A stretch of 18,379 nucleotides of DNA from Abditibacteriaceae bacterium (GTDB lineage Bacteria; Armatimonadota; Abditibacteriia; Abditibacteriales; Abditibacteriaceae), in NCBI GenBank assembly GCA_031425655.1, contig JANPJS010000327.1, forward strand, positions 1-18,379. Reading direction: 5' to 3'. The position numbers and the translations under genes are program-made. This document shows positions 105-18,379 of the stretch, in pieces; the stretch's first letter is position 1, and every line of letters starts with the position of its first letter. The notes below the pieces were generated by a model. It had not been told where the DNA came from, ran no database searches, and worked only from the letters and a program-made list of their open reading frames with translations.

Positions 105-243
105 AACACAGGCGAAGTTCTTAAGTTGATGCCTATGCGGCGAGAATCGCCATGCCCAACGGGTCATCTTTCGCGCCGGCTTTTATAATGTCAACTGCTA
201 AACCCGCCTATTTGAGCCGCGTAACAGCTCTAAACATAAACGC

Positions 244-3200: not shown

Positions 3201-3603
3201 CCCGCAAGACGGCGACGGGCGGCGCAGCCTTTACATCGCGGTGCGGCGCAATTTCTTGCAACCGATGATGCTCGCCTTCGACACGCCGATTCCCTTCATC
3301 ACGATGGGCCGTCGCAACGTGTCTAACGTCCCGGCGCAGGCATTGATTTTGATGAATGACCCGTTCGTAGTCGGGCAGGCACAAGTTTGGGCGAAGAAAA
3401 CCGCGTCCATCGCCGACCCCGCCGAGCGCGTGCGTCAAATGTATCTCGCGGTCTTCGCCCGCCCACCCGCCGACGCGGAACTGGCCTCCGCACTGCAATT
3501 CATAACGGAGCAGACGAAACTCGACGATGGAAAGCCCGAAGCGGCGTGGGCCGATTTCGCGCACGTTTTGTTCAATGTGAAAGAGTTCGTTTACGTGAGA
3601 TAG
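244..3603 (+). CDS. Planctomycete cytochrome c (PSCyt1) / DUF1549 (PSCyt2) / DUF1553 (PSD1) domain protein, secreted
   Basis: Signal peptide; FFEKRVRPVLAEQCYSCH (CxxCH); IDRFILARL, LLRRLNFDITGLPP, FGERWARHWLDLVRYAET and CARCHDHKFD (DUF1549); ARVMVNRVWHHLFGRGIV, RRSLY and VPAQALILMN (DUF1553). Confidence 0.93.
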   Translation: MTIFHRIIAILMIFSSSAARADAPKFAPEQIEFFEKRVRPVLAEQCYSCHSTQSKKLKGGLRLDSRAAILQGGDSGPAIVPGDPDKSRLITSVRYAHQDLQMPPKGKLPDAQIADMVEWVRQGAPWPAEKVVTTSAANDFNLAKRKAEFWSWQPPRAVPLPKVKNTKWSAQPIDRFILARLEQSNLAPAPPAEARVLLRRLNFDITGLPPTAEESEAFAKDAIANRPAAVERVVDRLLASPQFGERWARHWLDLVRYAETRGHEFDFTIPNAWQYRDYVVRALNADVPYDQFTREHLAGDLLPAPRLSANGANESILGTGFWFLGEEVHSPVDIRADETDRLDNRLDTMSKTFLGMTVACARCHDHKFDAISQRDYYAMSGFLISSSYRQARFGSMETNRAVAAELDKWQQTARPALQKATGAALQSGLEGAPQYLLAAREVLDGAAPEAVAVKTGLDIAHLARWSAALKAAKHDEAHPLSAFAATTLDAPDTEFARRRAALLERWNKQKAESSKIIAPESIVVDYARPGTGDWLQDGFSFGARPAQSGEAILGNDEKPLLGVVTRSGARRGEAWKKLAVQGAERDVGALGVWERSEQTLRTRDFTLNASKLWYLVRGGVRAYAAVDSHLMVQGPLHGALLREFKDENGGWHWVEQHLADYRGHRLHVEFSPLDKGDLTIAMVVQSDARPPLPAPDEALRAALADEKTGSPQALATALAAAWQSVAEQMKNGAIAPSHTAMADALLREQELFIPPDSAARRALTEAARPLLAEQTKITARIQAHSPTAPAMMDGSGMDEFLLIRGQSKNLGGAVPRRFLEALSGDKAPSFHGSGRLELAQQITAASNPFTARVMVNRVWHHLFGRGIVPTVDNFGVLGQPPSHRELLDHLALRFSREQGWSIKKLIREIVLSNAYQMASAPANERTESADPQNVLLHRANVKRLEGEAIRDAILAASGRLDLKMGGAPVPVYLTAFMDGRGRPGNGPQDGDGRRSLYIAVRRNFLQPMMLAFDTPIPFITMGRRNVSNVPAQALILMNDPFVVGQAQVWAKKTASIADPAERVRQMYLAVFARPPADAELASALQFITEQTKLDDGKPEAAWADFAHVLFNVKEFVYVR

Positions 3604-3770
3604 GTTTCAGAACCCCATCCCCGGCCCTTCCCCTTGAAACGGCAAAGGGGAAGGGTGTCCCGCCGCTTTTGCTTTGAAAAAGTAATAATTTATCCGAAGC
3701 AAAAGGTGTTCCAACTCCCTTCCCCATTGCCGTTTCAAGGGGAAGGGCCGGGGATGGGGTTCCGAAATCT
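3602..3770. repeat. About 170-bp palindromic repeat (CCCTTCCCCTT..GGCAAAGGGGAAGGG family)
   Basis: Arms of about 54 bp (3602-3655 and 3717-3770) are near-perfect inverted repeats, with inner cttttgctt/aagcaaaag pairing. The arm sequence is shared with the elements at 8752 and 16690. Confidence 0.85.
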
Positions 3771-3788
3771 GTTAGTTTTAAACACATC

Positions 3789-5228
3789 ATGCACCACAAA
3801 AAAAATCCCTTTGCTCAACCGCTCAGCCGGCGCGAAATGCTGACGCGCTGCGCCAATGGCTTCGGCGCGCTGGCCTTGACGGCGCTCTTATCCGACCAAG
3901 CCTACGGCGCGGCGAACATGAAAAAAGCCAGTGGCCCGTTAGCGCCCAAAACGCCGAAGTTTCCGGCCAAAGCCAAAGCGGTAATTTTTCTTTATATGGA
4001 CGGCGGACCGTCGCAGGTAGACACCTTCGACCCCAAACCGCGCCTGACTGCCGAGAACGGCAAGCCCTTCGGAATGAAAATGGAGGCCACGCAGTTCAAC
4101 AACCGGGGCAGCACGCTCGGTTCGCCGTGGCAATTCAAGCAATATGGGCAAAGCGGGACGCCGGTCAGCGACTTGTTCCCATTTGTGGCGCAGTGCGTGG
4201 ACGATTTGGCCGTAGTGCGTTCGATGACCAGCAATTTCTCGGAACACACCAACGCCAACTATTTTTTGCACACCGGCACCGGACTTCAAGGGCGGCCCAG
4301 CATGGGCGCGTGGTGCGGCTACGGTTTGGGCAGCGAAAACGCCGATTTGCCCGGCTTCGTGGTGCTGAACGGCGGCCTGATTCCGCCCGGAGGTTTGGAT
4401 AATTTCAACAGCGGCTTTTTGCCTGCCGCGTTTCAAGGCTCGATTTTCAAAACCGGCGCCAATCCCGTCGCCAACGTCACGCCGACCGAAGCCAAACCGC
4501 AGCAACAGGCCGCAAAACTGGCTTTGCTGCGCCAACTCGATTCCGGCGTGATGGAGCGCATGGGCAAAAACGACGAGGTCGAAAGCGCCATCGCCAACTA
4601 CGAACTGGCGTTCCGAATGCAGTCCGCCGTGCCGGAACTGATGGATTTGCGCGGCGAAAGCGAGGCGACAAAAAAGCTTTACGCTCTCGATTCGCCCAAC
4701 AAACTCACCGCGTCTTACGGCGAGCAATGCCTTTTGGCGCGGCGCCTCGTAGAGCGCGGCGTGCGCTTTATCGAGCTAACCTGCCCATCCACGCCGGGTG
4801 CCGACCGCTGGGATCAGCACGGCAATTTGCGTGACCATCACGCTAAAAACGCGCTCAACGTGGATCAACCCATCGCCGGACTGCTGCGCGACTTGAAAAG
4901 CCGGGGCTTACTCGATTCAACACTGGTGGTTTGGGGCGGCGAATTCGGGCGCACGCCGTTCGCGCAGGGCACCGATGGCCGCGATCACAACCCGTTCGGC
5001 TTTTCGATGTGGATGGCCGGCGGCGGCATCAAAGGCGGCACGATTTACGGCGCGACGGACGAATACGGCTACAAAGCCGTCGAAAACAAAGTCACCATCC
5101 ACGACTTGCACGCCACGATGCTGCATTTGCTGGGCGTTGACCACACCAATTTGACGTTCCGCTTTTCGGGCCGCGACATTCGCCTCACGGACGTTCACGG
5201 CGAAGTCGTCAAAGACATTTTGACGTAG
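3789..5228 (+). CDS. DUF1501 domain protein with Tat-like leader
   Basis: SRREML twin-arginine-like motif; AKAVIFLYMDGGPSQVDTFDPKP, LLARRLVERGVRFI, WDQH, GEFGRTP, GRDH and DLHATMLHLLG. This family commonly neighbours DUF1549/1553 genes. Confidence 0.93.
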   Translation: MHHKKNPFAQPLSRREMLTRCANGFGALALTALLSDQAYGAANMKKASGPLAPKTPKFPAKAKAVIFLYMDGGPSQVDTFDPKPRLTAENGKPFGMKMEATQFNNRGSTLGSPWQFKQYGQSGTPVSDLFPFVAQCVDDLAVVRSMTSNFSEHTNANYFLHTGTGLQGRPSMGAWCGYGLGSENADLPGFVVLNGGLIPPGGLDNFNSGFLPAAFQGSIFKTGANPVANVTPTEAKPQQQAAKLALLRQLDSGVMERMGKNDEVESAIANYELAFRMQSAVPELMDLRGESEATKKLYALDSPNKLTASYGEQCLLARRLVERGVRFIELTCPSTPGADRWDQHGNLRDHHAKNALNVDQPIAGLLRDLKSRGLLDSTLVVWGGEFGRTPFAQGTDGRDHNPFGFSMWMAGGGIKGGTIYGATDEYGYKAVENKVTIHDLHATMLHLLGVDHTNLTFRFSGRDIRLTDVHGEVVKDILT

Positions 5229-5474
5229 TCAGACGCGCTGGAAGTGAGTCCGTAATCGTCACGCTCGTGTCGAGGCATCTCTATGAAAATCTCTAAAAAG
5301 ACTTCGGTGACGTGGTTCAAGTTAGCCCTGCCTCAGTTCAATCTTAATTCTTCGCTTTACGCAGTGGAGTGTGATAAGCGAAGAGCGACTTCGTCACTCT
5401 TTGCACCGCCTACCATAACCCACCGCGTAAGGTGAGTTAATTCTTCGCTTTAATTATTTCCCATTAAAATCTCA

Positions 5475-5692
5475 GAAGCTGTCTGAGAATTCGTCAAAGC
5501 CTCAAACCGAAGACTTTTCAATAGGACGCGGAGCTTCGCTTTCCTGCCCAGAGGGCGCCCGAAACGACTTTGAAGGCGCGGTTTTTCCGAAAGAAATCAG
5601 CGAAAATCAGCGCACAACGTCCGCGTAGCGAAGCTCCGCGTCCTATTGAAAGCGGCTCAACTCAGGATTGATAGCTATTCTCAGACAGTTTC
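5475..5692. mobile_element. MITE, 218 bp, IS5 (IS1031-group)-like ends
   Basis: TIRs gaagctgtctgagaat (5475-5490) and attctcagacagtttc (5677-5692) match 15/16. Flanks are TCA/TAA. There is an internal perfect 25-bp inverted repeat at 5516-5540/5627-5651. The IS family call is inferred. Confidence 0.7.
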
Positions 5693-5843
5693 TAAGGCTG
5701 CCTTTGCTTACTCGATTCGCTTCGCCCGTAACGCTTTCCATTGACAGCGACGACTTCATAAATCCAGAACCAATTATGGCCTTTATTAGGTCGGTGGAGC
5801 CATCATCATATTCTGGCGCAAATAGTGCATCTGTATTAGCATC

Positions 5844-6023
5844 ATGCGCCCTCTTGTTATATCTCTTCTCACCGCCGGCATTGGCTGGTCGGTTATCTGG
5901 AGTGACGGGTGCCGCGCCGATACCCACGATTTTACTCGTCATGCAGAGGCTAAGAAATTCTTCGAGAGCCTGGCGAGCAAGAACCCGAACGCCGTTTGTT
6001 ACGTGGAAGGCAAACCCCGGTGA
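5844..6023 (+). CDS. Possible 59-aa small protein (MRPLVISLLTAGIGWSVIWSDG...CYVEGKPR)
   Basis: Translated by hand; not in the ORF track. It is followed by a + strand terminator at 6077-6113 but has no clear RBS. Confidence 0.3.
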   Translation: MRPLVISLLTAGIGWSVIWSDGCRADTHDFTRHAEAKKFFESLASKNPNAVCYVEGKPR

Positions 6024-6076
6024 CAAACACTTGACTCCCTGCGTGCTTTCGCTTTCTTGACTTGGAAATAAACGGC

Positions 6077-6113
6077 AACAGGCCCGGCATTAATTGATGC
6101 CGGGCCTGTTTTT
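6077..6113 (+). terminator. Rho-independent terminator
   Basis: 14-bp perfect stem aacaggcccggcat/atgccgggcctgtt ending in a T-run on +. It may also serve the converging 716-aa gene. Confidence 0.75.
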
Positions 6114-6140
6114 CGCGGGAATCGTGTTCTGGCGTTTATT

Positions 6141-8291
6141 TTATATTTCTTCAATTCGCGCTTGAGCCGTTTCGACCAAGCGGTCGAACCAGCGGCCATC
6201 AGGCGAAACCAGCGGGAACCACCACGCCGTCGGACGATAATTCGTGTAGCGCAAACCGTCGCTGACCAGCATCGCATCGCGCGTGCGGCGCAGACGTTCG
6301 AGTTCGGCTTCGTAACGCAGTTCAGAGCGCGATTGGCGCGCAGAAGCGACTTCGGCGCTGCGTTCGAGCGCCAATTTTTCGCGCACTTTTTCTTTCGAGG
6401 TCGCGCGCAATTCGCGGGCGCGGCGGCGCAACTCGTTGATTTCGTCATCGAAGTGCCTGCGCCCATTTTCGAGCGCCGCGATTTGAGCGCGCAAGGCTTC
6501 GATTTCGCGTGCTTCGGCTTCAGACTGCTCGGTCGCGGCGGCGCGTTCTTCTTTGCTTGGCTTGCGGGGTTTGCCGGTTGCCGCGTCCATCGGCACTTCG
6601 CTCAGACGGCGCGATTGGCTTTCCTTGATGTCGAACAAGCGTTCGCGCAGCGGCTGCACGTTGGCGCGAAAATCCTGACCTTTAACCAACTCGATTTGCC
6701 CGGCGCGTTCGCTGTCCGCCGAAGCCGCAGCGCGCAGTTCGACGATTTCTTTTTCCAGAGCTTCGGTGCGCTGGTGCAAAGTGGAAATCGTGGCGTGCGC
6801 CACATTGTATTGGTCGCGCCGCACCGGCCATGCGCCGGCAAATTTATCGGAAAGCAAGGCCAAAAGTTCGCGCGGTGAGCGACAGTTTTTCAAAGCTTCA
6901 CGCAAGGCGTCCTGGGCATCGCAGACATCGCTCCAGCGTGCCGCGAATTCGCCCGCCGGCACATCGCGCCGGCCAAAAGCCGCTTCCAAATGCGGAGGCA
7001 GCGCGAAAACAGCGCGCGTTTCAGATAAAGCGTCCCACGTCGCATAGCGCAATCGCAACAGCGGATGCAATGGCAATTCGATGCCCGCAGCGCGTAGCGC
7101 GTCGTTCATTTTCTGCGTGCGCGAGGTATAACTCGACGCCTTTTCGTGAAACACGAAGATAAATTCGTGCGCCAGCATCGAAATCAGCGAGACCGCTTTG
7201 CCGACCAGTGCCACGTCTGGGCCGAGTTTGGCTTCGAGAGCGCAGGCTAATTTTTCGACCGAATCACAAGCGCAGTCGGCGATGACGATGCGCGTTTCGG
7301 TTTCGATGCTGAGCGTGCCGTCGTGCAGGCGCAGCGTGCCGCGCCCCTGACCGGGAATGACGACATCGAAAGGCAGCGCGCCGGGGCCGAATTGGTCGAG
7401 CGTATAAATACCGCTGCCACGCACCGCGTCGTCGTAGCAGCACCGGGCCGTTTCGCGCGTAGCCGGGTTGAGAAAGATGTCCACGAAGCGAAAACGCGGC
7501 AGCGACTGCGTTTCGCGGTTGAAGCGAAAAAGGCGCAGCGACGAACTCGTGGTGAGATTGCACGAACCGGTGCCGCGCACTAACGCCCAAAGTCGCGGCG
7601 TCAGCCAGCGATATAAATCGGAAAGCGTGCCCTCCGGCTCCTGCGCCAGATAATCCGAAGTCCAGCCAAGAATGCGCTGGGCAATTTCGCGCGCTTGCTC
7701 GGCGCACGCTTCGCAAAACGCCTCGTCGTCGCGCTGCGGCCATACGATGGCAAGGCTTTCGCGGACGGCCCATTCAATTTGTTCAATCAACTGCGGGCCG
7801 ATGTCGCGCAGTTTCACGTCGCCGGCGATCAGCGGACGCGGCTCGGTGTGAACCAAAGCGCGCCAGCCCCAGGCGTTGGTTTCGCGGTTCAGCAGTTCCG
7901 TCATGCCGCCGGGATAATCGCGCGCCACGCGGTCGAATTCCACGCCGTTAGCGGCCAAATTATGGCGCGTCGGCACGATTTCGCTGCCGAAAAGGCACGA
8001 AACTTCGCCCGCCGCGCTCCACAGGCCGCGCGTTTCGCCGTCGTTGTGCGTCAACAAAGCGAATTTCTCGGCGCGATCTTCGAGATGCGATAATTTGGCG
8101 AAATAATCGGTGTCGTGGACGGCGGCCATCATCGGTGTGCCGGGCGCGATGCCTTCCAACATCCGGCAAAACGCCGCTTTGGCGGGTTCGTCCCACAGCA
8201 CGGTCTGGCCCAAAGTCAGGAACGGCGTTTGCGGGAAGCGGGCGCACAGCGATTGAATCGCTAAGGCCGCCGAAGGGTGAAACTCGGACAT
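6141..8291 (-). CDS. Hypothetical 716-aa protein: alpha/beta N-terminal region plus long C-terminal coiled coil (possibly remote BshC-like)
   Basis: Long ORF with motif-like LGQTVLWDE, HDTDYF and GLWSAAGE segments, an E/R/A/L-rich coiled-coil region, and an aromatic tail YRPTAWWFP. Confidence 0.85.
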   Translation of the reverse strand: MSEFHPSAALAIQSLCARFPQTPFLTLGQTVLWDEPAKAAFCRMLEGIAPGTPMMAAVHDTDYFAKLSHLEDRAEKFALLTHNDGETRGLWSAAGEVSCLFGSEIVPTRHNLAANGVEFDRVARDYPGGMTELLNRETNAWGWRALVHTEPRPLIAGDVKLRDIGPQLIEQIEWAVRESLAIVWPQRDDEAFCEACAEQAREIAQRILGWTSDYLAQEPEGTLSDLYRWLTPRLWALVRGTGSCNLTTSSSLRLFRFNRETQSLPRFRFVDIFLNPATRETARCCYDDAVRGSGIYTLDQFGPGALPFDVVIPGQGRGTLRLHDGTLSIETETRIVIADCACDSVEKLACALEAKLGPDVALVGKAVSLISMLAHEFIFVFHEKASSYTSRTQKMNDALRAAGIELPLHPLLRLRYATWDALSETRAVFALPPHLEAAFGRRDVPAGEFAARWSDVCDAQDALREALKNCRSPRELLALLSDKFAGAWPVRRDQYNVAHATISTLHQRTEALEKEIVELRAAASADSERAGQIELVKGQDFRANVQPLRERLFDIKESQSRRLSEVPMDAATGKPRKPSKEERAAATEQSEAEAREIEALRAQIAALENGRRHFDDEINELRRRARELRATSKEKVREKLALERSAEVASARQSRSELRYEAELERLRRTRDAMLVSDGLRYTNYRPTAWWFPLVSPDGRWFDRLVETAQARIEEI

Positions 8292-8339
8292 ATTTGAAAC
8301 CTGATGTTTGTCTGCGGACTTTGCCGCGTTTAACGTCTC

Positions 8340-8431
8340 ATAGCGTTTCTCAGATTGAATGCAACATCAAAGTGCGAGCGGGACGTTTAAGATTCGCTTC
8401 GCAATGGTGCATCTTTTCTGAGAAACGCTAT
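8340..8431. mobile_element. Short MITE-like inverted repeat, IS630-like ends
   Basis: Perfect 15-bp inverted repeat atagcgtttctcaga (8340-8354) / tctgagaaacgctat (8417-8431), extending to 23/28. The expected TA TSD is imperfect on both sides. Confidence 0.5.
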
Positions 8432-8519
8432 CAGAAGTTTAACCGATGCCTTGTTTTCAAAAACATTTAATGAAAGTTCGCTACGCTGGATAACGGCCTT
8501 TTGGAAAGCGAATTTTACC

Positions 8520-8711
8520 ATGACCGAACTCTTGCGTTCGTATCTCAATTTGGAAGCGCGATTAAGCCGGTGGCGCGCCGAACACCCTCGCTTTACGCCC
8601 GAAGAAGCGCAAATATTGGACGAACTCGACGCGCTGTGGCAGCAATTCAACCGCCACGAATTGCTGTGGCTCGACCAATTTTTAAGTGACGAAAAACCTC
8701 GCGCGGCATGA
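8520..8711 (+). CDS. Small helical hypothetical protein, 63 aa (MTELLRSYL...DEKPRAA)
   Basis: ATG at 8520 downstream of GGAAAG; amphipathic helical pattern; directly followed by a hairpin. Confidence 0.6.
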   Translation: MTELLRSYLNLEARLSRWRAEHPRFTPEEAQILDELDALWQQFNRHELLWLDQFLSDEKPRAA

Positions 8712-8747
8712 AAAAAACCCGGCCAATCGCGTAGATTGGCCGGGTTT
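8711..8747. terminator. Probable bidirectional terminator between the 63-aa ORF and phoU
   Basis: 14-bp stem aaacccggccaatc/gattggccgggttt with an A7 run on the left (U-tract on minus) and TTT on +. Confidence 0.75.
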
Positions 8748-8751
8748 CTAA

Positions 8752-8908
8752 GAGGCAGTCTGAAAAGTCCCCTCCCCTTGCCGTTTAAGGGGAGGGTTAG
8801 GGTGGGGTTCTGCGGCTTTTTTAACCCCCTGCCCAGAGGGCACCCGCCACCCCTTCCCCTTGATACGGCAAAGGGGAAGGGAGTTACCAGCACTTTTCAG
8901 GCTGCTTC
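8752..8908. mobile_element. MITE, 157 bp, IS5 (IS1031-group)-like ends, TAA TSD
   Basis: TIRs gaggcagtctgaaaagt / acttttcaggctgcttc match 15/17, with TAA on both sides (8749-8751, 8909-8911). The body is nearly identical to 16690-16832 apart from a net 14-nt insertion. Confidence 0.8.
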
Positions 8909-8923
8909 TAAGGCGAAGACAAA

Positions 8924-9649
8924 TTATCCATTGGCGCCGTTGTGCTGCGCGGCTTCGGCTTGTGCGACCATCAAACCGTGGCCGTGTTCTTCGCGCGCTA
9001 AGGGCCGCATTTCGCCGGTTTCGACGTAGTAAATCTGCTCGACGATATTGGTGGCATGATCGGCCACGCGCTCCAACATTCGCGCCACCAGCAGCAGTTT
9101 CGTGGCTTGCTCGACCAACGACGGGTCTTCGCGCATTTTGTCCATCAATTCGATTTGCAGGCGGTCGCACAAATCGTCCACGGCGTCGTCGTCGCGCGCG
9201 ACTTGCACGGCGGCTTCGATGCTGTGGCTGATGAAAGCTTGCAGCGAATCGCCAACCATTTTGCGCGACAATTGGCCAAGCTGAGGAATATCAACCAAAG
9301 GCTTTAAAAATGATTGTCCGGCCATGCTGCGCGTGATTTTGGCGATGTCTACGGCGTGATCGCCAATGCGTTCCAAGTCAATCACGATGCGCATACTGGC
9401 GCCGATAACGCGCAAATCACGCGCGACCGGCTGCTGCAAAGCCAATAATTGCATCGAACGCGCTTGGATACCAAAAGTAATGTCGTCGGCGAAATCGTCG
9501 TCCTCGGCAACGTGTTTGGCCAAAGCCAAATCCTGTCGCACGAGGGCGTCCATCGCTTTGCCGATGGCTTCTTCGACAAAGCGTCCCAGCCGCAGCATAT
9601 CGCTTTGCAATTCGTCGAGTTGGTCTTCAAAAGTGCGACGTATAATCAT
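8924..9649 (-). CDS. phoU: Phosphate transport regulator PhoU
   Basis: LLALQQPVARDLR, DLERIGDHAVDIA and LERVADHATNI. The start is placed at ATG 9649 behind AGGAAG; the upstream in-frame extension is repeat DNA and pstB overlap. Confidence 0.96.
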   Translation of the reverse strand: MIIRRTFEDQLDELQSDMLRLGRFVEEAIGKAMDALVRQDLALAKHVAEDDDFADDITFGIQARSMQLLALQQPVARDLRVIGASMRIVIDLERIGDHAVDIAKITRSMAGQSFLKPLVDIPQLGQLSRKMVGDSLQAFISHSIEAAVQVARDDDAVDDLCDRLQIELMDKMREDPSLVEQATKLLLVARMLERVADHATNIVEQIYYVETGEMRPLAREEHGHGLMVAQAEAAQHNGANG

Positions 9650-9658
9650 ATCTTCCTT

Positions 9659-9728
9659 TTGGTATTGGGTGTTAGGTTTTGGGTTCTGGCGAAGTCCCCA
9701 ATACCTAACACCCAATACCCAACACCTA
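9659..9728. repeat. Inverted heptamer tandem array (CCYAAYA)n
   Basis: The run cccaata-cctaaca-cccaata-cccaaca faces its inverse. 9661-9683 and 9697-9719 pair at 22/23. Confidence 0.8.
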
Positions 9729-10547
9729 TTACCCAAACCGGCCCGTAATATAATCTTCGGTCTTCTTAACCGAGGGATCGGTGAAAATTTTCGAGGAGGC
9801 GTCCATTTCGACAAGTTCTCCGAGCAGGAAGAATGCCGTGGTGTCGCTGACGCGCGCCGCCTGCTGCATATTGTGCGTCACGATGACGATGGTGTAATCC
9901 TGTTTCAGTTCGCGCATCAATTCTTCGATTTTCAAAGTCGAAATCGGGTCGAGCGCCGAGCAGGGTTCATCCATCAAAATCACTTCGGGCTTGGTCGCCA
10001 GAGCGCGTGCGATGCACAAACGCTGCTGCTGGCCACCCGAAAGCGCCAGAGCGCTTTTTTTCAGATCGTCTTTGACTTCGCCCCACAGCGCGGAGTTTTT
10101 CAGGCTGGTTTCCACGATTTCCGTCAGATCGCTTTTGTTTTTGACGCCGTGCAGACGCGGGCCGTAAGCGATGTTATCGAAGATGCTCATCGGAAACGGA
10201 TTCGGCTTCTGGAAGACCATGCCGACACGCTGGCGCAATTCGACCACGTCCACGTTCTTGGCGTAAACGTCCTGACCTTCCAGCATCACATGGCCTTCGA
10301 TGCGCACATTTTCAATGAGGTCATTCATGCGGTTCAAGCAGCGTAAAAACGTGCTTTTGCCGCAGCCGGACGGGCCGATAAACGCCGTAATTGCGTTGGT
10401 GTCCATTTTCAGGCTAATGCCTTTGAGCGCCTGTTTCGCGCCGTAATGCAAATTCACATCACGGGCTTCCATCTTGACCGGGCGCTCTGGGGCCGCAGCG
10501 GCCCCGTTGGTTTTGGGCGCACCTTGCGCCACATTGGGTTTCATCAT
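9729..10547 (-). CDS. pstB: Phosphate ABC transporter ATPase PstB
   Basis: [55 protein letters not shown] and [10 protein letters not shown]. Confidence 0.98.
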
Positions 10548-10645
10548 AACAGGCCTATTCGCAAAATGCGGTCGAGTAAAAAGCGTTTATCTTGTTGAGT
10601 CTAACGTCTAAGAATGACAGGCGGCCTCCCCATTAATGGGGAAGC

Positions 10646-10843
10646 CAGGGAAAACGCATGAGAACTGCCCGGCGAATAAAATCGCGGCAACCACTTCCTG
10701 CCCAAAGGGCACCCGAAGTCCGCCTGCGCGGACTATTTTCTGAGTTTTTAGTCGCCGCAGGGCGACTTTGCCGCGTTGTTGCCGCGAATTTATTCGCCGG
10801 GCACTCAGGCAAGCCTCCGAAAAATCCTCATGCGTTTGCCCTG
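10646..10843. mobile_element. ISAs1-like MITE, 198 bp, 10-bp TSD, containing a REPIN
   Basis: TIRs cagggaaaacgcatgag (10646-10662) and ctcatgcgtttgccctg (10827-10843) match 16/17. The TSD atggggaagc/ctggggaagc matches 9/10. CAGGG ends with an approximately 10-bp DR fit the ISAs1 family. Confidence 0.8.
10666..10803. repeat. REPIN-like palindrome with GAAGTCCGCCTGCGCGGACT core
   Basis: Arms 10666-10691 and 10778-10803 pair at 25/26. The core is shared with 1-104 and 14102-14219. Confidence 0.85.
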
Positions 10844-10875
10844 CTGGGGAAGCCGCTTGATTGCTACCGGCGGAA

Positions 10876-11856
10876 TTACTTGCCGCCTTCTTTACGCATC
10901 AGACCGCCTAAAGTCACGTTGACCTGCGAGCCTTTGTTGCCGAAAATCGAGCCGGTCGCCTTCTTGTTGAAACGAGCCTGCGCCATGCGCACCAGACCGG
11001 AGGGCAGCGGCACATAGCCGACTTGCTTGCTCAACTTGGCCATGTTGGCCAGATAGTAACGCACAAAGCCGGCAACGTGCGGCTGTGCGGCTTTGGCTTT
11101 GTTGACATAAATGAACAGCGGGCGCGCCAGCGGTTTGTAAGTGCCCTTGTTCACGGCGTCAATCGAGGGCATTACGCCGTTGACCGCGACCGCATTCAGC
11201 TTATTCGAGTTCTCTTCGTAGTAAGCGAAACCAAAGTAGCCCAAACCGCCTTTATCGCGCGAAACGCCTTGCACGAGGACGTTGTCATCTTCGCTGGAAG
11301 TGAAGTCCGTGCGGCTGGCTTTTTCCTTGCCGTTGATGGCTTCGGTGAAGTAATCGAAGGTGCCGGAATCGGTTCCGGGGCCGTAGAGTTTCAAAGGAAC
11401 GCTGGGAAAACCGGCGCGCACTTGCGACCAGTTTTTCACGGTGCTGCCCGGCATCCAGATTTTTTTCAGTTCTTCGGTCGTGATGTTCTTGGCCCAGGTG
11501 TTCTGCTTGTTGACGACAATTGTCAGCGCGTCGAAGGCAACCGGCAATTCGATGAACTGGACGCCGCTTTTGACCGCGAGGGCGGCTTCGGAGGCCTTGA
11601 TGGGCCGCGAAGCGTTCGAGATGTCGGTTTCGCCGGGCGCAAACTTCTTGAAACCGCCGCCGGTTCCGCTTACGCCGACCGTCACGCGGATATTCGGATT
11701 CACTTTGCCGTATTCTTCGGCCACGGCTTCGCTGATGGGAAAAACGGTCGAGGAACCGTCAATCTTGATCGTTTGCGCCTGAGCGCCGCCGGCCAGACCT
11801 ACGGTCAAAGCCACGCCCAGCGCACTCGCGCCGAGCCATTGTTTGTTTACTTTCAT
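10876..11856 (-). CDS. pstS: Phosphate-binding protein PstS, Sec-cleaved soluble form
   Basis: IDGSSTVFP, GTGGGFKKF, ASRPIK, DSGTFDYF and SEDDNVLVQGV; signal ends AQA|Q. ATG 11856 was chosen because GGAGA lies just upstream; alternatives are 11868 and 11886. Confidence 0.95.
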   Translation of the reverse strand: MKVNKQWLGASALGVALTVGLAGGAQAQTIKIDGSSTVFPISEAVAEEYGKVNPNIRVTVGVSGTGGGFKKFAPGETDISNASRPIKASEAALAVKSGVQFIELPVAFDALTIVVNKQNTWAKNITTEELKKIWMPGSTVKNWSQVRAGFPSVPLKLYGPGTDSGTFDYFTEAINGKEKASRTDFTSSEDDNVLVQGVSRDKGGLGYFGFAYYEENSNKLNAVAVNGVMPSIDAVNKGTYKPLARPLFIYVNKAKAAQPHVAGFVRYYLANMAKLSKQVGYVPLPSGLVRMAQARFNKKATGSIFGNKGSQVNVTLGGLMRKEGGK

Positions 11857-11908
11857 TTTGTTCTCCATAATTTTCGCTTTCGCCACCGATGTGGTTTCGT
11901 CGCTTTAA

Positions 11909-11953
11909 AGGCTATGGCGCGAAGATTAAGGCGCGGTTAAGGCAAGGTTAAGG
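11909..11953 (-). promoter_or_regulatory. Predicted Pho-box promoter of pstS2-pstB-phoU
   Basis: CTTAACCT-N3-CTTAACCG-N3-CTTAATCT (TTAA at 11948, 11937, 11926), an 8-nt gap, then TAGCCT (11914-11909). Confidence 0.8.
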
Positions 11954-11990
11954 TTCACTGAAATACGGCCTAAGCCCACGAAGTAAGCAC

Positions 11991-12027
11991 AAAAAACAAA
12001 ACGCCGGCGCGATTTTTCGCACCGGCG
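11991..12027 (-). terminator. Terminator after pstA
   Basis: Minus strand reads cgccggtgcga-aaaa-tcgcgccggcg followed by TTTTGTTTTTT. Confidence 0.8.
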
Positions 12028-12051
12028 CAAGTGAATATGGAGAAGCGTTTT

Positions 12052-12981
12052 TCAAACTCTGCGGCTAAAGCGATAGCGCAGAACAATTGCCACGGCGTTA
12101 AGCACCAGCAATACCGTAAGCAGCACGATGATACCGGCAGCGGCAATCTCTTGAAAGGATTCCTGCGGTCGTCCCGTCCAGTTGAAAATTTGAATCGGCA
12201 GCGTGGTGAAGCCGTCTTTCAAGCCTTGCGGCACGAACGCGACGTAAGTTAGCGCGCCCATCATAATCAGCGGCGCGGTTTCGCCCATCGCGCGGGCCAA
12301 AGCCAAAATAACTCCGGTTAGAATGCCGGGCAGAGCGACCGGAAGCACTTGTCGGCTGATGGTGTGCCATTTGGTGGCGCCCAGAGCATACGAACCGTCG
12401 CGCAGCGAATTGGGCACGGCGCGCAAGGCTTCCTGCGCCGAAATGATGACAATCGGCAGCACGAGCAGGCCCAACGTTAAACCGCCCGATAAAACGCTGC
12501 GCTCGAAGTTGAGAATGCGCACGAACAACGCCAAGCCCAAGATGCCGTAAACGATGGACGGCACGCCGGCTAAATTAGCAATGTTCACCTGGGCAAAGCG
12601 CGCGAACTTATTGCGTTCAGAGTATTCTTGCAGGAAAATCGCGGCGCCGATGCCGACCGGGACCGAAAACGCCATGCACACCATCATCACATAAACCGAG
12701 CCGTAAATCGCCGATTTCACGCCCGCTTTTGCGGCAAAACGCGATGGAAATGCGTTCAGGAAGTCCCAGAGGCGCGTTTTCAACGGCGCAAAGCCTTCTT
12801 TGAAAATGCCCCACAGCAGCCACACCAACAGCACGAAGGCTAACATGGTGATGCTGAAACACAGAAATGCGAACAAGTTCGAGGAGAAATGCCGCCGTTT
12901 GAGCCGCGCCGAACTTTTCACCAGAGGCGCGTGTTTGATCGGGTTTGGGCTGGGTTGTGGAGAAAGGATTTCGCTTGCCAT
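12052..12981 (-). CDS. pstA: Phosphate ABC permease PstA
   Basis: NLAGVPSIVYGILGL, EALRAVP..SYALGATKW and ARAMGETAPL. The real start is ATG 12981, 5 nt after the pstC stop; the longer ORF overlaps pstC. Confidence 0.96.
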   Translation of the reverse strand: MASEILSPQPSPNPIKHAPLVKSSARLKRRHFSSNLFAFLCFSITMLAFVLLVWLLWGIFKEGFAPLKTRLWDFLNAFPSRFAAKAGVKSAIYGSVYVMMVCMAFSVPVGIGAAIFLQEYSERNKFARFAQVNIANLAGVPSIVYGILGLALFVRILNFERSVLSGGLTLGLLVLPIVIISAQEALRAVPNSLRDGSYALGATKWHTISRQVLPVALPGILTGVILALARAMGETAPLIMMGALTYVAFVPQGLKDGFTTLPIQIFNWTGRPQESFQEIAAAGIIVLLTVLLVLNAVAIVLRYRFSRRV

Positions 12982-12986
12982 AAAGA

Positions 12987-14009
12987 TTAATCGTATTTCT
13001 GCTGATATTTTTTCACCAGCGCGATGGAAGCGATGTTCATCACCACGGTAATGCAAAACAGCAGGAGGCCGACGGCGAAAATAGTCTGGTATTCCAGCGA
13101 GCCGTGCGGCACATCGCCCAGCGACACTTGGACGATGTAGCCGGTCATGGTTTGGATGCCCTTGAAGGGATTGGCGGTCAGAATCGGCGTGTTGCCGGCG
13201 GCAATCGCCACGATCATGGTTTCGCCGACCGCGCGAGAAACCGCCAGAATAAAGCTGGCCGCGATGCCCGACAGCGCCGCCGGCACCACAATTTGCGTCG
13301 AGACTTCCATTTTGGTCGCGCCCAGCGCATAAGCGCTTTCGCGCAGGCCGGCGGGCACGACGTGCAGCGCGTCTTCGCAAAGCGACGACACCAAAGGCAG
13401 CGTCATGATAGCGATGGCGATAGAAGCCGACATCGCGTTAAACGGCTCGACGACGAATTCGGGGTTGTTCAGCACTCTTTGCAGGAACGGCTCCATTTTC
13501 TGCAAAAGCGGCGTGATGAAGATTAAGGCAAAAAAGCCATAAACCACGGTCGGCACGCCGGCCAGAATTTCTAAAATCGGCTTCAACACGTTGCGAGCGC
13601 GCGGCGAAGCGTATTCCGACATATAAATCGCCGCCAGCAGCCCCATCGGCAACGCGAAGATGGCCGCGCCCGCCGCCACCAAAAAGGTGCCGCATACGAG
13701 CGGCAAAACGCCGTAAAAGTGCTTGCCGTTTTCATCGGCGATGAGCGGAGTCCACGCTTTGCCCAATAGAAAATCCGCCACCGAAATGCCGGCGTGCGTG
13801 AAAAACGGAATGCTGTCGGCGATCAACACGTAGATGATGCCGAACGTGGTGAGAACCGACACCGCCGCGCACGCGCCGAATATCCATTTGAGGATGATTT
13901 CGTTGAGACGGAACTTGCCGGTTAACGGAGTCGGCCCGCCGGAGCGCGTTGCGGCGCCGCTGTCAGATTGGGAAACGCTGCCTGCCATTGAAATGCTTTC
14001 TGCCGCCAT
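12987..14009 (-). CDS. pstC: Phosphate ABC permease PstC
   Basis: ILEILAGVPTVVYGFF, LRESAYALGATK and SRAVGETMIV. The start is placed at ATG 14009 with AAGGT upstream. Confidence 0.96.
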   Translation of the reverse strand: MAAESISMAGSVSQSDSGAATRSGGPTPLTGKFRLNEIILKWIFGACAAVSVLTTFGIIYVLIADSIPFFTHAGISVADFLLGKAWTPLIADENGKHFYGVLPLVCGTFLVAAGAAIFALPMGLLAAIYMSEYASPRARNVLKPILEILAGVPTVVYGFFALIFITPLLQKMEPFLQRVLNNPEFVVEPFNAMSASIAIAIMTLPLVSSLCEDALHVVPAGLRESAYALGATKMEVSTQIVVPAALSGIAASFILAVSRAVGETMIVAIAAGNTPILTANPFKGIQTMTGYIVQVSLGDVPHGSLEYQTIFAVGLLLFCITVVMNIASIALVKKYQQKYD

Positions 14010-14101
14010 AAAGAGACCTTTTGAGGATAACTGCGGAGACCGGGAAGGCGCCATTGAGCCGATCAAACGGCTCCTTTAATTAATCTATCGTGTTACCTAT
14101 C

Positions 14102-14219
14102 GAGTTCCCCCGATTGAAATCGGGGTCTAAGACTACGAAGTCCGCCTGCGCGGACTCTCCAATGAGCCGGCGCAGGCCGGCTTTGTCTGCGTAGACCCCG
14201 ATTTCAATCGGGGGAACTC
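14102..14219. repeat. GTAG-type REPIN between pstS1 and pstC
   Basis: Perfect 28-bp inverted repeat at 14102-14129/14192-14219, with GTAG at 14191 preceding CCCCGATTTCAATCGGGG. A possible outer shell spans 14083-14245 with TAATTA on both sides. Confidence 0.85.
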
Positions 14220-14248
14220 AAGCCTAAATTAGGTAGCAACTGAGTTAA

Positions 14249-15280
14249 TTAACCCGCCATCAATTCCGGCAGCGGCTTCTTTTTGGCGTCTTTGGCGGCA
14301 TACATGGTGCCGACAACACGATCATCGAAGCGCTTCATGGACGCGGTATAAAGGTCATCGGGCAGCGGCACATAGCCGACGTTTTTGACCAGTTCCTTGC
14401 CTTCGGTCAGATAAAACTTCACGAATTCCGCGACTTCGGGACGTTCGGCGGCCTTTTTCTCGATGTAAACGAAAAGCGGACGCGATAAAGGCTTGTATTT
14501 GCCGGTATTGACGCTTTCGGCGGACGGCTTGATGCCGTCAACCGTCACGGCTTTGAGCTTGGCCGCATTTTCTTCGTAATAAGCCAAGCCGAAATAGCCC
14601 AGAGCGCCTACGTCACGCGAAACGCCCTGCACCAAGACGTTGTCGTCTTCGCTGGACACGAAATCGGTGCGGCAAGCGTCTTCCTTGCCGTTAATGGCTT
14701 CCGTAAAGTAATCGAAGGTGCCGCTATCGGTTCCGGGGCCGTAAAGTTTGAGAGGTTTGCTCGGAAATCCGGCGCGCACCTGCGACCAATTGGTGACTTT
14801 GCTGCCCGGCTCCCAGATTTTCTTTAATTCGGCGACGGTCAGGTTGGTGGCCCAGGTGTTTTGGGGATTAACCACGACCGTCAAAGCGTCGTAAGCGACC
14901 GGCATTTCGATGTATTCGATGCCTTTTTCTTTGGCGGCCTTGTCTTCTTTGTCTTTAATCGGGCGCGAGGCATCCTGCAAAACGGTGTCGCCCGCGATGA
15001 ACTTTTTGAAGCCGCCGCCGGTTCCGCTCACGCCGATGGTGATTTTCAAATCGGGGTGCTTTTTGCCGAATTCTTCAGCGACCGCTTCGCTAATCGGGAA
15101 AACCGTCGAAGAGCCGTCGCCTTTGATGGTGCCCGTAAGTTTCGCGCCTGCGCTGCCACTACCTTCGGTCGAAGACGTTGAGCTGCCGCTTTCGCTGGGC
15201 GCTTGCCCGCCGCAGCCGGCTATCGCCAAACCGGTCGCAAAAACGCCGGCTACACCATATTTCCAAAACTGATTACGCAT
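14249..15280 (-). CDS. pstS: Phosphate-binding protein PstS, lipoprotein form
   Basis: Lipobox LAIAGC followed by an S/G-rich linker; DGSSTVFP, GTGGGFKKF and DSGTFDYF; GGAGG RBS. Confidence 0.96.
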   Translation of the reverse strand: MRNQFWKYGVAGVFATGLAIAGCGGQAPSESGSSTSSTEGSGSAGAKLTGTIKGDGSSTVFPISEAVAEEFGKKHPDLKITIGVSGTGGGFKKFIAGDTVLQDASRPIKDKEDKAAKEKGIEYIEMPVAYDALTVVVNPQNTWATNLTVAELKKIWEPGSKVTNWSQVRAGFPSKPLKLYGPGTDSGTFDYFTEAINGKEDACRTDFVSSEDDNVLVQGVSRDVGALGYFGLAYYEENAAKLKAVTVDGIKPSAESVNTGKYKPLSRPLFVYIEKKAAERPEVAEFVKFYLTEGKELVKNVGYVPLPDDLYTASMKRFDDRVVGTMYAAKDAKKKPLPELMAG

Positions 15281-15307
15281 TTGTCCTCCAGGAATCTTTC
15301 AGGGGAA

Positions 15308-15351
15308 ATGTTAAGAACTCAATATTAAGAAAACCTTAAGTCAATGATAAA
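15308..15351 (-). promoter_or_regulatory. Predicted Pho-box promoter of pstS1-pstC-pstA
   Basis: TTTATCAT-N3-CTTAAGGT-N3-CTTAATAT (11-bp period), an 8-nt gap, then TAACAT (15313-15308). Confidence 0.65.
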
Positions 15352-15365
15352 TTGAGGCGTATCTC

Positions 15366-15390
15366 GTAGGGGCGCAACAGGTTGCGCCCT
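15366..15390 (+). repeat. Solo GTAG REP
   Basis: GTAG directly followed by the palindrome GGGCGCAAC-AG-GTTGCGCCC. Confidence 0.7.
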
Positions 15391-15429
15391 CGTGTTACGC
15401 TCCATTCTGTTAAGGCTTTTAAGCACGCC

Positions 15430-15469
15430 AAAAGCGCCGCCGCCCTGACATGGAATAGGGCAGCGGCGC
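15430..15469 (-). terminator. Terminator after the phosphatase-fold gene
   Basis: 13-bp stem with one G-U pair on minus, followed by TTTT. Confidence 0.65.
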
Positions 15470-15493
15470 AACTTGGCAGACAGCGAACGAGAA

Positions 15494-16648
15494 TTATTTC
15501 GCCGCCGGTTTAGCCGACGCGATGGCCATCAACGATTGTGCAACATCTTCACCCAGCGGGGCATTGAGCGCCCACACCGTCGCACCGTTGGCACCGGCTT
15601 CATAGCCGATTTTCAGCGCCGGTTCATAGGAACCGCGAATCGCGGCTTCGGGCGTGGTTTTGCCGGCCACGATGTCGGCGCGCGTGGCATCGGACAACTG
15701 CCAGCCTTTATAAGCCGTCGTGGAGAAATCCTTCAACTTGGCTTCGTCGGCGCCTTTGAGCGTCATGCCGGCTTTTGCATAGGACATCGGCAGCGCCGAA
15801 ACGATATAAAGCGCGTCCGAACGCTCGGTCGGCAAATCCGTGGTGAACTTCGGCACCATCGCGCCGCCGGTTGTCAGCACCGCCACGCCGAAGCCTGCGG
15901 GATTAGCCACGCCTTCGCGTGTGCCCATCACGTCGCCAATAATGCCGTCCAACTCTTTGAATTGTTCCAGAGCCGCCGGGGTGTCTTTGGCGTTGAGCGC
16001 CCGCGCCAACAGCGTGTCGTGGACGACCAAAAAGAAGGGCTGGTCGTCCGCCGACAAGGTTTGCAGCGCGAGCGTAACCAATTCGGCGAAACCCGATTCA
16101 GTGTCGCCTTCACGATCCAGATTCCAGTTCAGCGCGTTGTCGGCTTGCAGCGCCAGCACTTTGCCTTTGATCTCATTATTCAGCGCTTCGACATCCATCA
16201 TGGCCGTGCCGCCCATGCCGGTTAATTGCTGCGCGGCGTCGCCCGCAGAAGCGCGGCCACCGCCGGCGATAATGTCGAATTTCGCGTCGCGCACCACGTT
16301 TTGCGCCGTGGTGTCGTAGAACAACGCGCCGGTTTTCAGAGCGTCGTCCGTGGTCACCAGGCCGGTTTTGTAGCCGTTGGCCGCCGCTGTTTTCAGCAGG
16401 CCTTTGAGGTTGAGCGGCGTGACATTGCCCGCCGCCATGCTTTTGCCGTTGGCTTTAAGTTCGTCGAAGGCCACGGTCGCGCCCTGCTCGTAGGCGGTTT
16501 TCAAGTAAACGCGGCCAAAATCAACGGCTTGCGGCGAAACGCCTTCGGCCACGACCAAGACCATCTGACGCGGTGCGGCCTGCGCCGTCTGCGCGAAGGC
16601 TATCGTCGCCATCGCGGTTACTGTCAATTTGTTGAGAACTTTACGCAT
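15494..16648 (-). CDS. Secreted alkaline-phosphatase (PhoA)-fold protein lacking most catalytic residues
   Basis: Signal ending AQA|A. PhoA scaffold motifs appear in order: QMVLVVAEGVS, GYKTGLVTT, DIIAGGG, FAELVTLALQTL, PFFLVV. Start ATG 16648 has AGGTGG upstream; the longer ORF runs through the MITE. Confidence 0.8.
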   Translation of the reverse strand: MRKVLNKLTVTAMATIAFAQTAQAAPRQMVLVVAEGVSPQAVDFGRVYLKTAYEQGATVAFDELKANGKSMAAGNVTPLNLKGLLKTAAANGYKTGLVTTDDALKTGALFYDTTAQNVVRDAKFDIIAGGGRASAGDAAQQLTGMGGTAMMDVEALNNEIKGKVLALQADNALNWNLDREGDTESGFAELVTLALQTLSADDQPFFLVVHDTLLARALNAKDTPAALEQFKELDGIIGDVMGTREGVANPAGFGVAVLTTGGAMVPKFTTDLPTERSDALYIVSALPMSYAKAGMTLKGADEAKLKDFSTTAYKGWQLSDATRADIVAGKTTPEAAIRGSYEPALKIGYEAGANGATVWALNAPLGEDVAQSLMAIASAKPAAK

Positions 16649-16689
16649 TGGTTGTCCACCTGATTTCAAAAATGCTTCGCTTGTTCTTA

Positions 16690-16832
16690 GAACCCGTCTG
16701 AGAAGTCCCCTCCCCTTGCCGTTTAAGGGGAGGGTTAGGGTGGGGTTCTGCGGCTTTTTTAACCCCATCCCCAACCCTTCCCCTTGATACGGCAAAGGGG
16801 AAGGGAGCCACCATCACTTCTCAGACAGTTTC
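16690..16832. mobile_element. MITE, 143 bp, IS5 (IS1031-group)-like ends, TTA TSD
   Basis: TIRs gaacccgtctgagaagt / acttctcagacagtttc match 15/17, with TTA at 16687-16689 and 16833-16835. Confidence 0.82.
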
Positions 16833-16834
16833 TT

Positions 16835-16891
16835 AAACAAAAGAAGGGGTGAGCCACGCTCTAAAAGGCACCCGGCTCATCCCTTTTGTTT
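16835..16891 (-). terminator. Hairpin/terminator after the porin gene
   Basis: aaacaaaagaaggggtgagcc / ggctcatcccttttgttt around an 18-nt loop; U-rich tail on minus. Confidence 0.6.
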
Positions 16892-18147
16892 TAGAAGGCC
16901 ACTTGGCCTTGCACACGTAACTCGGTTCGGTCGTTGCCGACGCCGCCGCCATCGCCCGCCACGCCCGTGCCATTCTGATGCACGATGTTGGCTTGAATCT
17001 TGGCGTTGTTGCCCTTGATGTAATAGTTCACACCAGCCGTGATTTGCTTGATCTCACCCGAAGTCGCCGGAGCCGCAGCGCCGCGACGCAGTTGAAAGGT
17101 GTCGTAACGCAACACGCCTTCGACTTTCGGAGTGAACAAGTAACCGGCGTGCGCATAATAGCCGCGCACATCGCGCGTGACATTCGGCGCCGGAGCGAGG
17201 CCAACGATAACCGAATCGCCCTTCAAATACTCAGCTTGCAAGGTCAGCTTGTCGCGCTTGTAGGCCGCGAAAGCGTTCATGACGCTGCGGTCAACGCCCG
17301 GCCCAACGTCGCCGGTGCCGCCGCTGATGCCGATGACCGTATCGCCCATATTTTTCGGACGATACATCAAACGACCGACGAAAGCTTTGTCATCTACGGC
17401 TGCCGTGCGGTTCTGGCGCTCGCCCAAACCGTTGAAAATGCCGAGTTCGTAGCCGAACTCATTGGCCGTTCCGCGCAAACGAATGCCGGTTTCGCGGATG
17501 TCGCCATAGCCGCCGCCCGACACGTCGCGCTGGCTGAACATCAAAGCGCGCTCAATGGTTTGAATGGCGCTGGACGACACCAAGTCGCCTTCGTAGCCGA
17601 TGGGAATTTTAAACTGGCCGGCGTCAATGAAAAGCGAGCCGGTGGGCTTCTGCTTCAGCATATAAGACAAAGCCAATTCCTGAAGCACGGTGCCGTTGGC
17701 GGGCAAATCCACGTTGCCGCCGCCGGCGGCTGTGGTGATGCGTCCGGGATTTTTAGCCGGGTCAATCATCACGGTGCCGGTCAGGCGCGGCGTGATGCGG
17801 CCCGTCAAGCGGATTTCAGCGCGGCGCAGACGAAAGGAATCAACCTGCTTGGCCGTAGCGGGCGGGCCGGGCAAAATATCTTCGCTAAAATAAGTGTCGC
17901 CGCGAACCTGTAACAAACCCGACACGGTCACGGGAAATTTCGAGGTCGCCGGAGTGCCGGCTTTGGCTGCCGCCTCGCTGGTCTTTTTCGCGTCGGCTTC
18001 CATCTTGTTCAAACGCTCGGACATATCGGCGATTTGCTGGCGCAACGCCGCCATTTCGCTTTGCTGCGCGTTGGCCGGCAGCGAGCTAACCATCATTGAG
18101 GCCACGAGGGCCACAGATACGCCTTTGACTGTTTTCAGTCGGTTCAC
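16891..18147 (-). CDS. Outer-membrane porin, OprO/OprP phosphate-selective porin-like
   Basis: Signal peptide and short coiled coil; SFRLRRAEIRLTG, DAGQFKIPIG, IER, LQAEY and TAGVNYY; C-terminal Phe; GTG start behind GGAGG; located in the pst cluster. Confidence 0.85.
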   Translation of the reverse strand: MNRLKTVKGVSVALVASMMVSSLPANAQQSEMAALRQQIADMSERLNKMEADAKKTSEAAAKAGTPATSKFPVTVSGLLQVRGDTYFSEDILPGPPATAKQVDSFRLRRAEIRLTGRITPRLTGTVMIDPAKNPGRITTAAGGGNVDLPANGTVLQELALSYMLKQKPTGSLFIDAGQFKIPIGYEGDLVSSSAIQTIERALMFSQRDVSGGGYGDIRETGIRLRGTANEFGYELGIFNGLGERQNRTAAVDDKAFVGRLMYRPKNMGDTVIGISGGTGDVGPGVDRSVMNAFAAYKRDKLTLQAEYLKGDSVIVGLAPAPNVTRDVRGYYAHAGYLFTPKVEGVLRYDTFQLRRGAAAPATSGEIKQITAGVNYYIKGNNAKIQANIVHQNGTGVAGDGGGVGNDRTELRVQGQVAF

Positions 18148-18238
18148 AAAAGTCCTCCTGCAAAATTTTTCGCCATGCTTTTACACCGCCCCCATCTTTC
18201 AGGGTCGGCGGCACTCGAAGACGGCGCTTATCGCCCAA

Positions 18239-18293
18239 ATTGTAATCTGTATGACTTAAAGGTTGGTTAAGGCGGCATTAAGACGAGGTTAAG
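18239..18293 (-). promoter_or_regulatory. Predicted Pho-box promoter of the porin gene
   Basis: CTTAACCT-N3-CTTAATGC-N3-CTTAACCA-N3-TTTAAGTC (TTAA at 18289, 18278, 18267, 18256), an 8-nt gap, then TACAAT (18244-18239). Confidence 0.82.
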
Positions 18294-18379
18294 CGCTGAA
18301 TTCTGAGAATCAGTCTCGAAATCCGGTATTGCGTTCAAAAACTTGATGCCTCTGTCATTCTGAGTCCTGCCCAGAGGGC

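Follow-up and report, generated by a model that had tools for sequence, protein, structure and literature searches.

An SDR-type micro-element variant of Abditibacteriaceae, most likely copied into its host repeats by target-primed synthesis

The small dispersed repeats (SDRs) that Elhai and colleagues described in 2008 are reportedly 21-27 nt long, with hairpin structure, and sit within tandem heptamers and mini-transposons. The movement of elements this small (about 20 nt) has been an open question since these cyanobacterial SDRs were described. Passages in several papers state that among cyanobacteria SDRs are confined to Nostocaceae and that one of them, SDR5, inserts precisely into HIP1 (PMC4390886, PMC5861425, PMC3116915, PMC2884548). 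We analysed a stretch of 18,379 nucleotides from an Abditibacteriaceae bacterium (the window; contig JANPJS010000327.1, positions 1 to 18,379, assembly GCA_031425655.1), in which an original prediction, made from the letters alone, had noticed a constant oligonucleotide inserted into unrelated palindromic repeats. We call this oligonucleotide the module. Among known classes it comes nearest to the Nostocaceae SDRs (Elhai et al. 2008, Genome Res 18:1484), and it differs from them in length, in the mode of insertion stated for SDR5 and in the phyla that carry it; we regard it as an SDR-type micro-element variant, most likely copied in by target-primed synthesis.

SDRs reportedly share with the module its very small size, dispersal, high copy number and diversity of contexts (327 copies in 269 distinct contexts in this genome), a hairpin, nesting in other repeats, filled and empty alleles and a mover yet to be found. 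The module is shorter, with a core of 16 nt, or 17-19 nt with its leader, against the 21-27 nt that SDRs are said to span. It occurs in phyla other than that of the Nostocaceae to which the same passages assign SDRs, and it deletes 4 nt and gains one base, where those passages state precise insertion, for SDR5 only. No such module was found in 150 kb of Nostoc plasmid DNA, too little to decide. The original prediction did not recognise a named element, and literature searches likewise returned no paper describing the module; the SDR paper's own text and supplements could bear on an earlier sight of target loss.

The invariant core, GCCCARAGGGCRCCCG, is laid out as GCCC-ARA-GGGC-R-CCCG, a 4-bp stem with a 3-nt loop and a 5-nt tail, preceded by a lineage-specific 5' leader of 0-3 nt. 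The module had been described as a fixed 19-mer; this has to be given up, as its first base is usually host sequence that was retained, its left end differs between lineages and only the 16 nt are invariant. Across the genome (5.98 Mb, 327 contigs, 97% complete; code G000), copies were counted as matches with at most three mismatches to the motif, 158 on the + strand and 169 on the - strand, and their position profile showed sharp boundaries. Two genomes, G310 and G315, are left out of all counts and claims. Two internal A/G positions vary, and all four combinations coexist. The predicted mini-hairpin does fold, on either strand, at -3.2 to -4.3 kcal/mol, little better than shuffled sequences (z -0.2 to -2.2). 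The module ends are asymmetric and lack terminal inverted repeats, and the target suffers a deletion instead of a target-site duplication, which separates the module from miniature inverted-repeat transposable elements and DDE insertion sequences (ISs).

Comparison of filled with empty alleles defines the junctions. An empty allele was found elsewhere in the genome for 157 of the 269 contexts; the net gain was +15 in 119 of these and +14 in 17. In the resulting 136 clean cases the target base was C in 133, followed by the loss of four host bases, and the base at the left junction was T in 77, A in 29, C in 27 and G in none. Neighbouring host bases matched the empty allele in 111-117 of 119. 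In the usual event the target C is kept, the 4 nt 3' of it are erased, one base that is not inherited from the donor is added 5' of it, and nothing is duplicated. A junction is best read as host sequence, a stray base, a retained host base, 16-18 nt of module and then host again, because in Chloroflexota pairs the '19-mer' often begins with the host's own base (A or G there). Among 97 distinct events the stray base was T in 42, C in 30, A in 22 and G in 3; it was independent of the two internal variants (p=0.49, 0.86) and depended on the preceding host base (p=0.007), and at 13 of 83 sites the copies showed more than one such base. The right end joins exactly, often with 1-3 nt of microhomology, and the lost 4-mer ends like the module in 33 of 70 cases against 25% expected (p=9e-5). 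In Chloroflexota the net gain was +15 in 29 of 42 pairs, drawn from 98 sites, and +14 in 7 of the 42. The central claim of the original prediction, a constant oligonucleotide in unrelated repeats with empty alleles, four bases lost and no target duplication, thus stands, and we are highly confident that the module is genuinely mobile and follows this junction rule.

The three full copies and the one cut copy predicted in the window were all present, against 0.00 expected in 200 shuffles, and sit in repeats between the genes of a phosphate-uptake region (PhoU, ABC ATPase, phosphate-binding proteins, porin O/P). Their common strand, taken by the prediction as a rule, is an accident of the window, given the genome-wide strand counts. 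The copies and their hosts, several of them doublets of repetitive extragenic palindromes (REPs), are as follows.

5516..5651, unstranded: host REP doublet with a perfect 25-bp stem, 5516-5540/5627-5651; the same host family lies empty at the orthologous gene end in congener G266.
5543..5561, + strand: module copy with one mismatch; kept target C at 5543, 18-nt module at 5544-5561, stray T at 5542; 4 nt replaced, net +15 compared with empty copies of that host at other places in the genome.
8746..8909, unstranded: host mini-element of a C-rich hairpin family, missing from the orthologous spacer in congeners G266 and G237.
8828..8846, + strand: exact module copy that lacks a stray base; 18 nt gained (8829-8846) and 4 nt lost, net +14.
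10666..10803, unstranded: host REP doublet, itself inside a terminator loop that is empty in congener G237.
10697..10715, + strand: module copy with the AAA loop variant (one mismatch); stray T at 10696, net +15.
16684..16833, unstranded: sister host mini-element, the empty allele for the 8828 site.
16855..16874, + strand: probable old decayed copy in a terminator loop, 12/19 match, unproven; the loop is 20 nt here and 5 nt in the orthologous terminator of G237.
18366..18379, + strand: module copy truncated at the contig end, with a stray T at 18365 and half of a host REP at 18354-18364; the same junction occurs in about 20 other places.

The details read from the sequence held up at the full copies. 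Comparison with the sister at 16690 bore out the exchange at 8828, including the lack of a target-site duplication, the 25-bp stem ends 2 nt before 5543, and the arm asymmetry noted at 10697 corresponds to the net gain there. For the degenerate copy proposed at 16856-16874, the difference from the G237 loop is again +15; the stems also differ between the two terminators.

The prediction further supposed that insertion is targeted to hairpin or cruciform structure, and this was not sustained. In 70 targets the target C was unpaired in 28, on the 5' arm in 25 and on the 3' arm in 17, and perfect stems of at least 7 bp occurred at 47 of 202 sites against 102 of 600 background positions (p=0.059), near background. 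Sites of the same net size also exist in non-palindromic DNA: a filled phage portal gene (+15, in frame) and two filled IS5 genes that are each other's empty allele (+15 and +14). Since the net gain is +15, reading frames are kept and five residues are added to phage and transposase proteins; IS110 and ISL3-like frames, the latter labelled from a motif, also remain open across the module. What the distinct sites do favour is repeated DNA (143 of 202, against 159 of 600 non-coding C positions; p=9e-29). This enrichment may in part reflect tolerance and the amplification of filled hosts: one insertion event was amplified to 21 copies, and filled host repeats afterwards multiplied through their own mobility. 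Hosts include heptamer repeats and REP doublets, with REPINs the commonest. A tRNA-Arg(TCG) gene in a tRNA array on contig C61 carries the module as well. That array (G000:C61:85-845) holds seven tRNA genes, and the module-bearing copy is the only tRNA-Arg(TCG) that ARAGORN found in the genome; a second tRNA-like insertion was seen in L437.

Orientation is fixed within a host family, with 45 distinct junctions forward and none reverse in eight asymmetric families, a count that leaves out two self-complementary families, in which hits (2 and 5) ran both ways. Under a leave-one-out site model 29% would be expected in reverse (P ~1e-5 for 30 targets), and therefore sequence preference alone does not explain the fixed polarity. 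The polarity is relative to each host repeat. The suggested check against replichore found no bias, the copies of this genome dividing 49:49 against contig GC skew; in the single-contig genome G033 the split was 17 of 26 unpaired copies (p=0.17), with replichores hand-assigned from a weak 20-point skew sample. The hosts around module sites also hold small interchangeable GNA-type mini-hairpins, opposite to the module strand as written in 31 cases against 16 (p=0.04).

We propose that the module is a non-autonomous mobile micro-element, probably moved by target-primed synthesis with template jumping, and give this account as a whole a probability of about 0.55. A trans-acting nuclease would cut a strand-specific host intermediate with a stagger, and the host 3' end on the right would prime copying of a short module template, either DNA or RNA. 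The polymerase would then add an untemplated base, mostly A on the new strand, and rejoin the host on the left, with the 4-nt overhangs displaced. Target-primed copying fits best because the right end is exact and aided by microhomology, the left end is ragged with a non-inherited base, and the deletion is short; for this copying route in particular our belief stops a little short of even odds. R2 retrotransposons, which move by target-primed reverse transcription, likewise leave an exact junction where synthesis is primed and, on the other side, a ragged one with untemplated bases, along with a short deletion of the target. The module differs from them in being 16-19 nt, non-coding and bacterial, and in that no reverse transcriptase (RT) was found with it.

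A broader reading, which we hold to be speculative and rather unlikely, is that of an RT-independent DNA-writing system across bacterial phyla, in which a conserved enzyme would cut beside the target base and write a fixed 16-nt hairpin with a constant 4-nt deletion and an untemplated base. Such a system would act as a five-residue in-frame mutagen of phage and transposase genes and as a general mover of SDR-like micro-elements. The scar itself is unusually informative about the movement of such elements, combining a fixed deletion, an exact primed end, a non-inherited extra base and host-strand polarity. The 16-nt core, kept across at least two phyla, provides a defined pull-down substrate and a clean genome-wide marker for tests of gene presence and absence.

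Several observations weigh against target-primed synthesis. No mover was found, and no recognisable RT is available for the proposed route: RVT_1 was unmatched in this 97% complete genome, tblastn with 14 RT frames gave no match better than E 0.016, and no RT was found in 6 of 19 other module-bearing genomes, although all genomes in the mover tests are drafts, in which failure to find a gene does not equal absence. No master copy with conserved flanks was present among all 35 exact sites of G033, and 1867 frames adjoining module copies share no gene family. Of the contexts in this genome, 112 of 269 had no empty allele, and 21 of the 157 with one showed other net sizes, mostly phase slips in tandem repeats. 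Where one site shows different junction bases, later point mutations could be the cause. Chloroflexota pairs, some of them ambiguous, show greater variety at the left junction and a looser C rule.

The chief rival is a pre-made oligonucleotide joined by strand transfer or ligation without synthesis, the 3' ends attacking with a reversed stagger so that bases are lost, and the stray base coming from repair opposite a damaged or abasic base. It would need no RT and would give a constant deletion size and an exact right end; the abasic-site A-rule, which predicts an A bias, is likewise consistent with the excess of A among stray bases of the new strand. We consider it unlikely, since Ku, tried as a mover, was found in 0 of 26 genomes, no candidate integrase adjoins the module, a donor of 16-19 bp would be very short for a transpososome, and the host base is usually kept rather than lost. 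The other candidates named in the original prediction, an excision footprint, an RT-templated or retron patch and RAYT (REP-associated tyrosine transposase) joining, each lack the gene link that they require. In the last of these, HUH-type single-strand cleavage and joining would make the module a tiny REP. The fixed polarity within hosts, one host family flanking a RAYT-type gene and six Y1_Tnp matches in the genome all speak for it, and the module resembles REPs and REPINs in its short hairpin, high copy number and strand-specific behaviour, as passages on those systems describe it; the same passages place a GTAG or CGTC tag 5' of the hairpin, which the module lacks (PMC3116915, PMC8266576, PMC3733652). 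TnpA-REP, according to passages in PMC8266576, cuts C|T (or C|A) and joins exactly, whereas here 4 nt are lost and a base is gained. No RAYT gene flanks the module, none of its copies lies within 1.5 kb of the six Y1_Tnp matches, and it is a passenger inside REPs of many families. Y1_Tnp was also rejected as a mover across genomes, not being found in 8 of 21 module-rich genomes and being present in 4 of 5 module-free ones; we think RAYT joining improbable. A retron or other RT copying a conserved master RNA into breaks is, in our estimate, more improbable still. Invariance across phyla suggests a conserved template, the junctions have an RT-like pattern, and 13 of the 19 module-bearing genomes have some RT. 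These RTs belong to unrelated classes, no module-like sequence was found within the 20 RT loci fetched, no RT was found in this genome or beside the module, and the coexistence of all four internal variant combinations fits copy-to-copy spread better than a single master.

Equally improbable is that the module is the footprint of a larger element, such as the IS110 found inside it. The prediction had named IS110 among possible donors, and an IS110 does lie in the module, as a tenant rather than the maker. All 10 left and 10 right junctions of this unassembled IS are joined to module halves (20/20). A PF02371 match lies at its C101 junction, and the copy in G266 matches DEDD (PF01548, E 2.6e-14) and Transposase_20 (PF02371, E 1.8e-8), with subterminal inverted repeats and a CT core. 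The region upstream is structured (fold z -4.55), and guide segments of 9 nt (left) and 7 nt (right), flanking one hairpin, match the two module sides; in the second hairpin no clean match of donor-binding guides to the circle junction was read. Passages in PMC11208160 describe a similar guide arrangement for IS621 and entry of IS110 into existing targets by guide pairing, which counts against a footprint. The tenant is like IS621-type elements in these passages in its two domains, CT core, upstream guides and use of an abundant repeat as a safe harbour; it differs in that their targets are REPs and its own target is a micro-element that in turn sits inside REPs, which adds a third layer of parasitism, a difference that concerns the tenant only. 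Four copies with a doubled AG core (G000 contigs C119, C143, C244 and C302) are possibly scars of imprecise IS110 removal and would suit a footprint. The IS110 query, however, matched only 6 of 19 module-bearing genomes, with matching guides seen solely in G266 and G308; there the IS occupies a near-match site in another IS and is not bordered by module halves. Other repeats serve as targets for close IS110 relatives, no other cargo lies between module halves in the genome, and the exact sites of G033 hold no element bounded by module halves. The IS110 is thus a later parasite that confirms the module as a stable biological target and leaves the 4-nt replacement unaccounted for; the abstract of a 2026 preprint on half-match recombination describes no such product (10.64898/2026.08.31.748434). 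The match of its guide RNA to the module also counts against an adapter or assembly artefact, to which the many copies near contig ends, as for any repeat, might have pointed. That explanation is effectively refuted, as the prediction had asked to be checked, by its presence in dozens of separate assemblies (contigs of 3.8 and 4.7 Mb among them), lineage-specific variants and the strict junction rule.

The IS110 on the module illustrates how bridge RNAs are retargeted in nature, here to a safe harbour that is itself mobile. In L144 and L145 (Thermomicrobiales), IS110 relatives with similar ends occupy the C-rich hairpin mini-element and not the module, and therefore this IS clade has retargeted between repeats.

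Outside the rivals, the search for a mover found no gene bracketed by module pairs and none over-represented beside the module. The four-helix bundle PF05635 was rejected (not found in 5 of 21 module-rich genomes, present in 3 of 5 module-free ones), as were DUF559 (PF04480; 23 of 31 genomes, not found in the module-rich G221 and G245) and GxxExxY (PF13366; 28 of 31 genomes including module-free ones, and 7 of 10 Chloroflexota). Comparing 4007 proteins with about 1.2 Mb (about one quarter) of G313 and with 30 small loci turned up no further candidate. The module may be moved by a divergent enzyme or by a core repair activity, or its mover may have been lost already.

Of 301 genomes in the phylum, 11 contain the exact pattern. 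When one mismatch is allowed, the module appears, with lineage-specific leaders, in 23 of the 26 family genomes; some of these have only 1-3 copies, close to the control level. A set of 29 genomes was chosen because each had a match; they include 11 Chloroflexota genomes with 13-146 copies (controls 0), one Gemmatimonadaceae genome with 10 (controls 0) and seven with a single match, probably by chance. The module was also present in 20 viral contigs, six of which carry two. Metagenome stretches with it number at least 121, show further leaders and include some chance matches. Nuclease genes that travel with host repeats show high cross-phylum identity (GxxExxY 63%, four-helix bundle 59%, DUF559 51%), which suggests a route by which filled hosts could cross phyla. 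In this genome the three genes lie at C45:32813-33196, C74:24318-24701 and C144:463-894, 51-63% identical to Chloroflexia homologues and above most sampled housekeeping genes; they may be mobile cassettes that make host repeat families.

No mobility gene was found among nine window frames scanned, and Rfam and ARAGORN gave no matches in the window. One further repeat belongs to a host family:

14102..14219, unstranded: empty REP doublet whose family is filled at seven distinct junctions elsewhere and flanks the RAYT-type gene of contig C12; positions 1-113 hold another empty copy.

A 14-nt word at 10830-10843 (degenerate at 10646-10659, - strand) has 110 genome copies and closes many different REP doublets, with a random outer flank. 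It was the sole other candidate in the genome for a sister module with the same junction rule and turned out to be a repeat terminus, apparently common to several repeat families. A 716-aa frame at 6141-8291 has no Pfam match; it shows 69-73% DNA identity in three congeners and is phoU-linked in G266 and G237. The phosphate-binding protein genes at 10876-11886 and 14249-15280 are paralogues (70% identity over 300 nt), and TTAAG repeats with 11-nt spacing, probable Pho boxes, lie upstream of phosphate genes at 11926-11952 and 18256-18293. A CRISPR-like 29-nt repeat is present in about 32 copies on several contigs of the genome.

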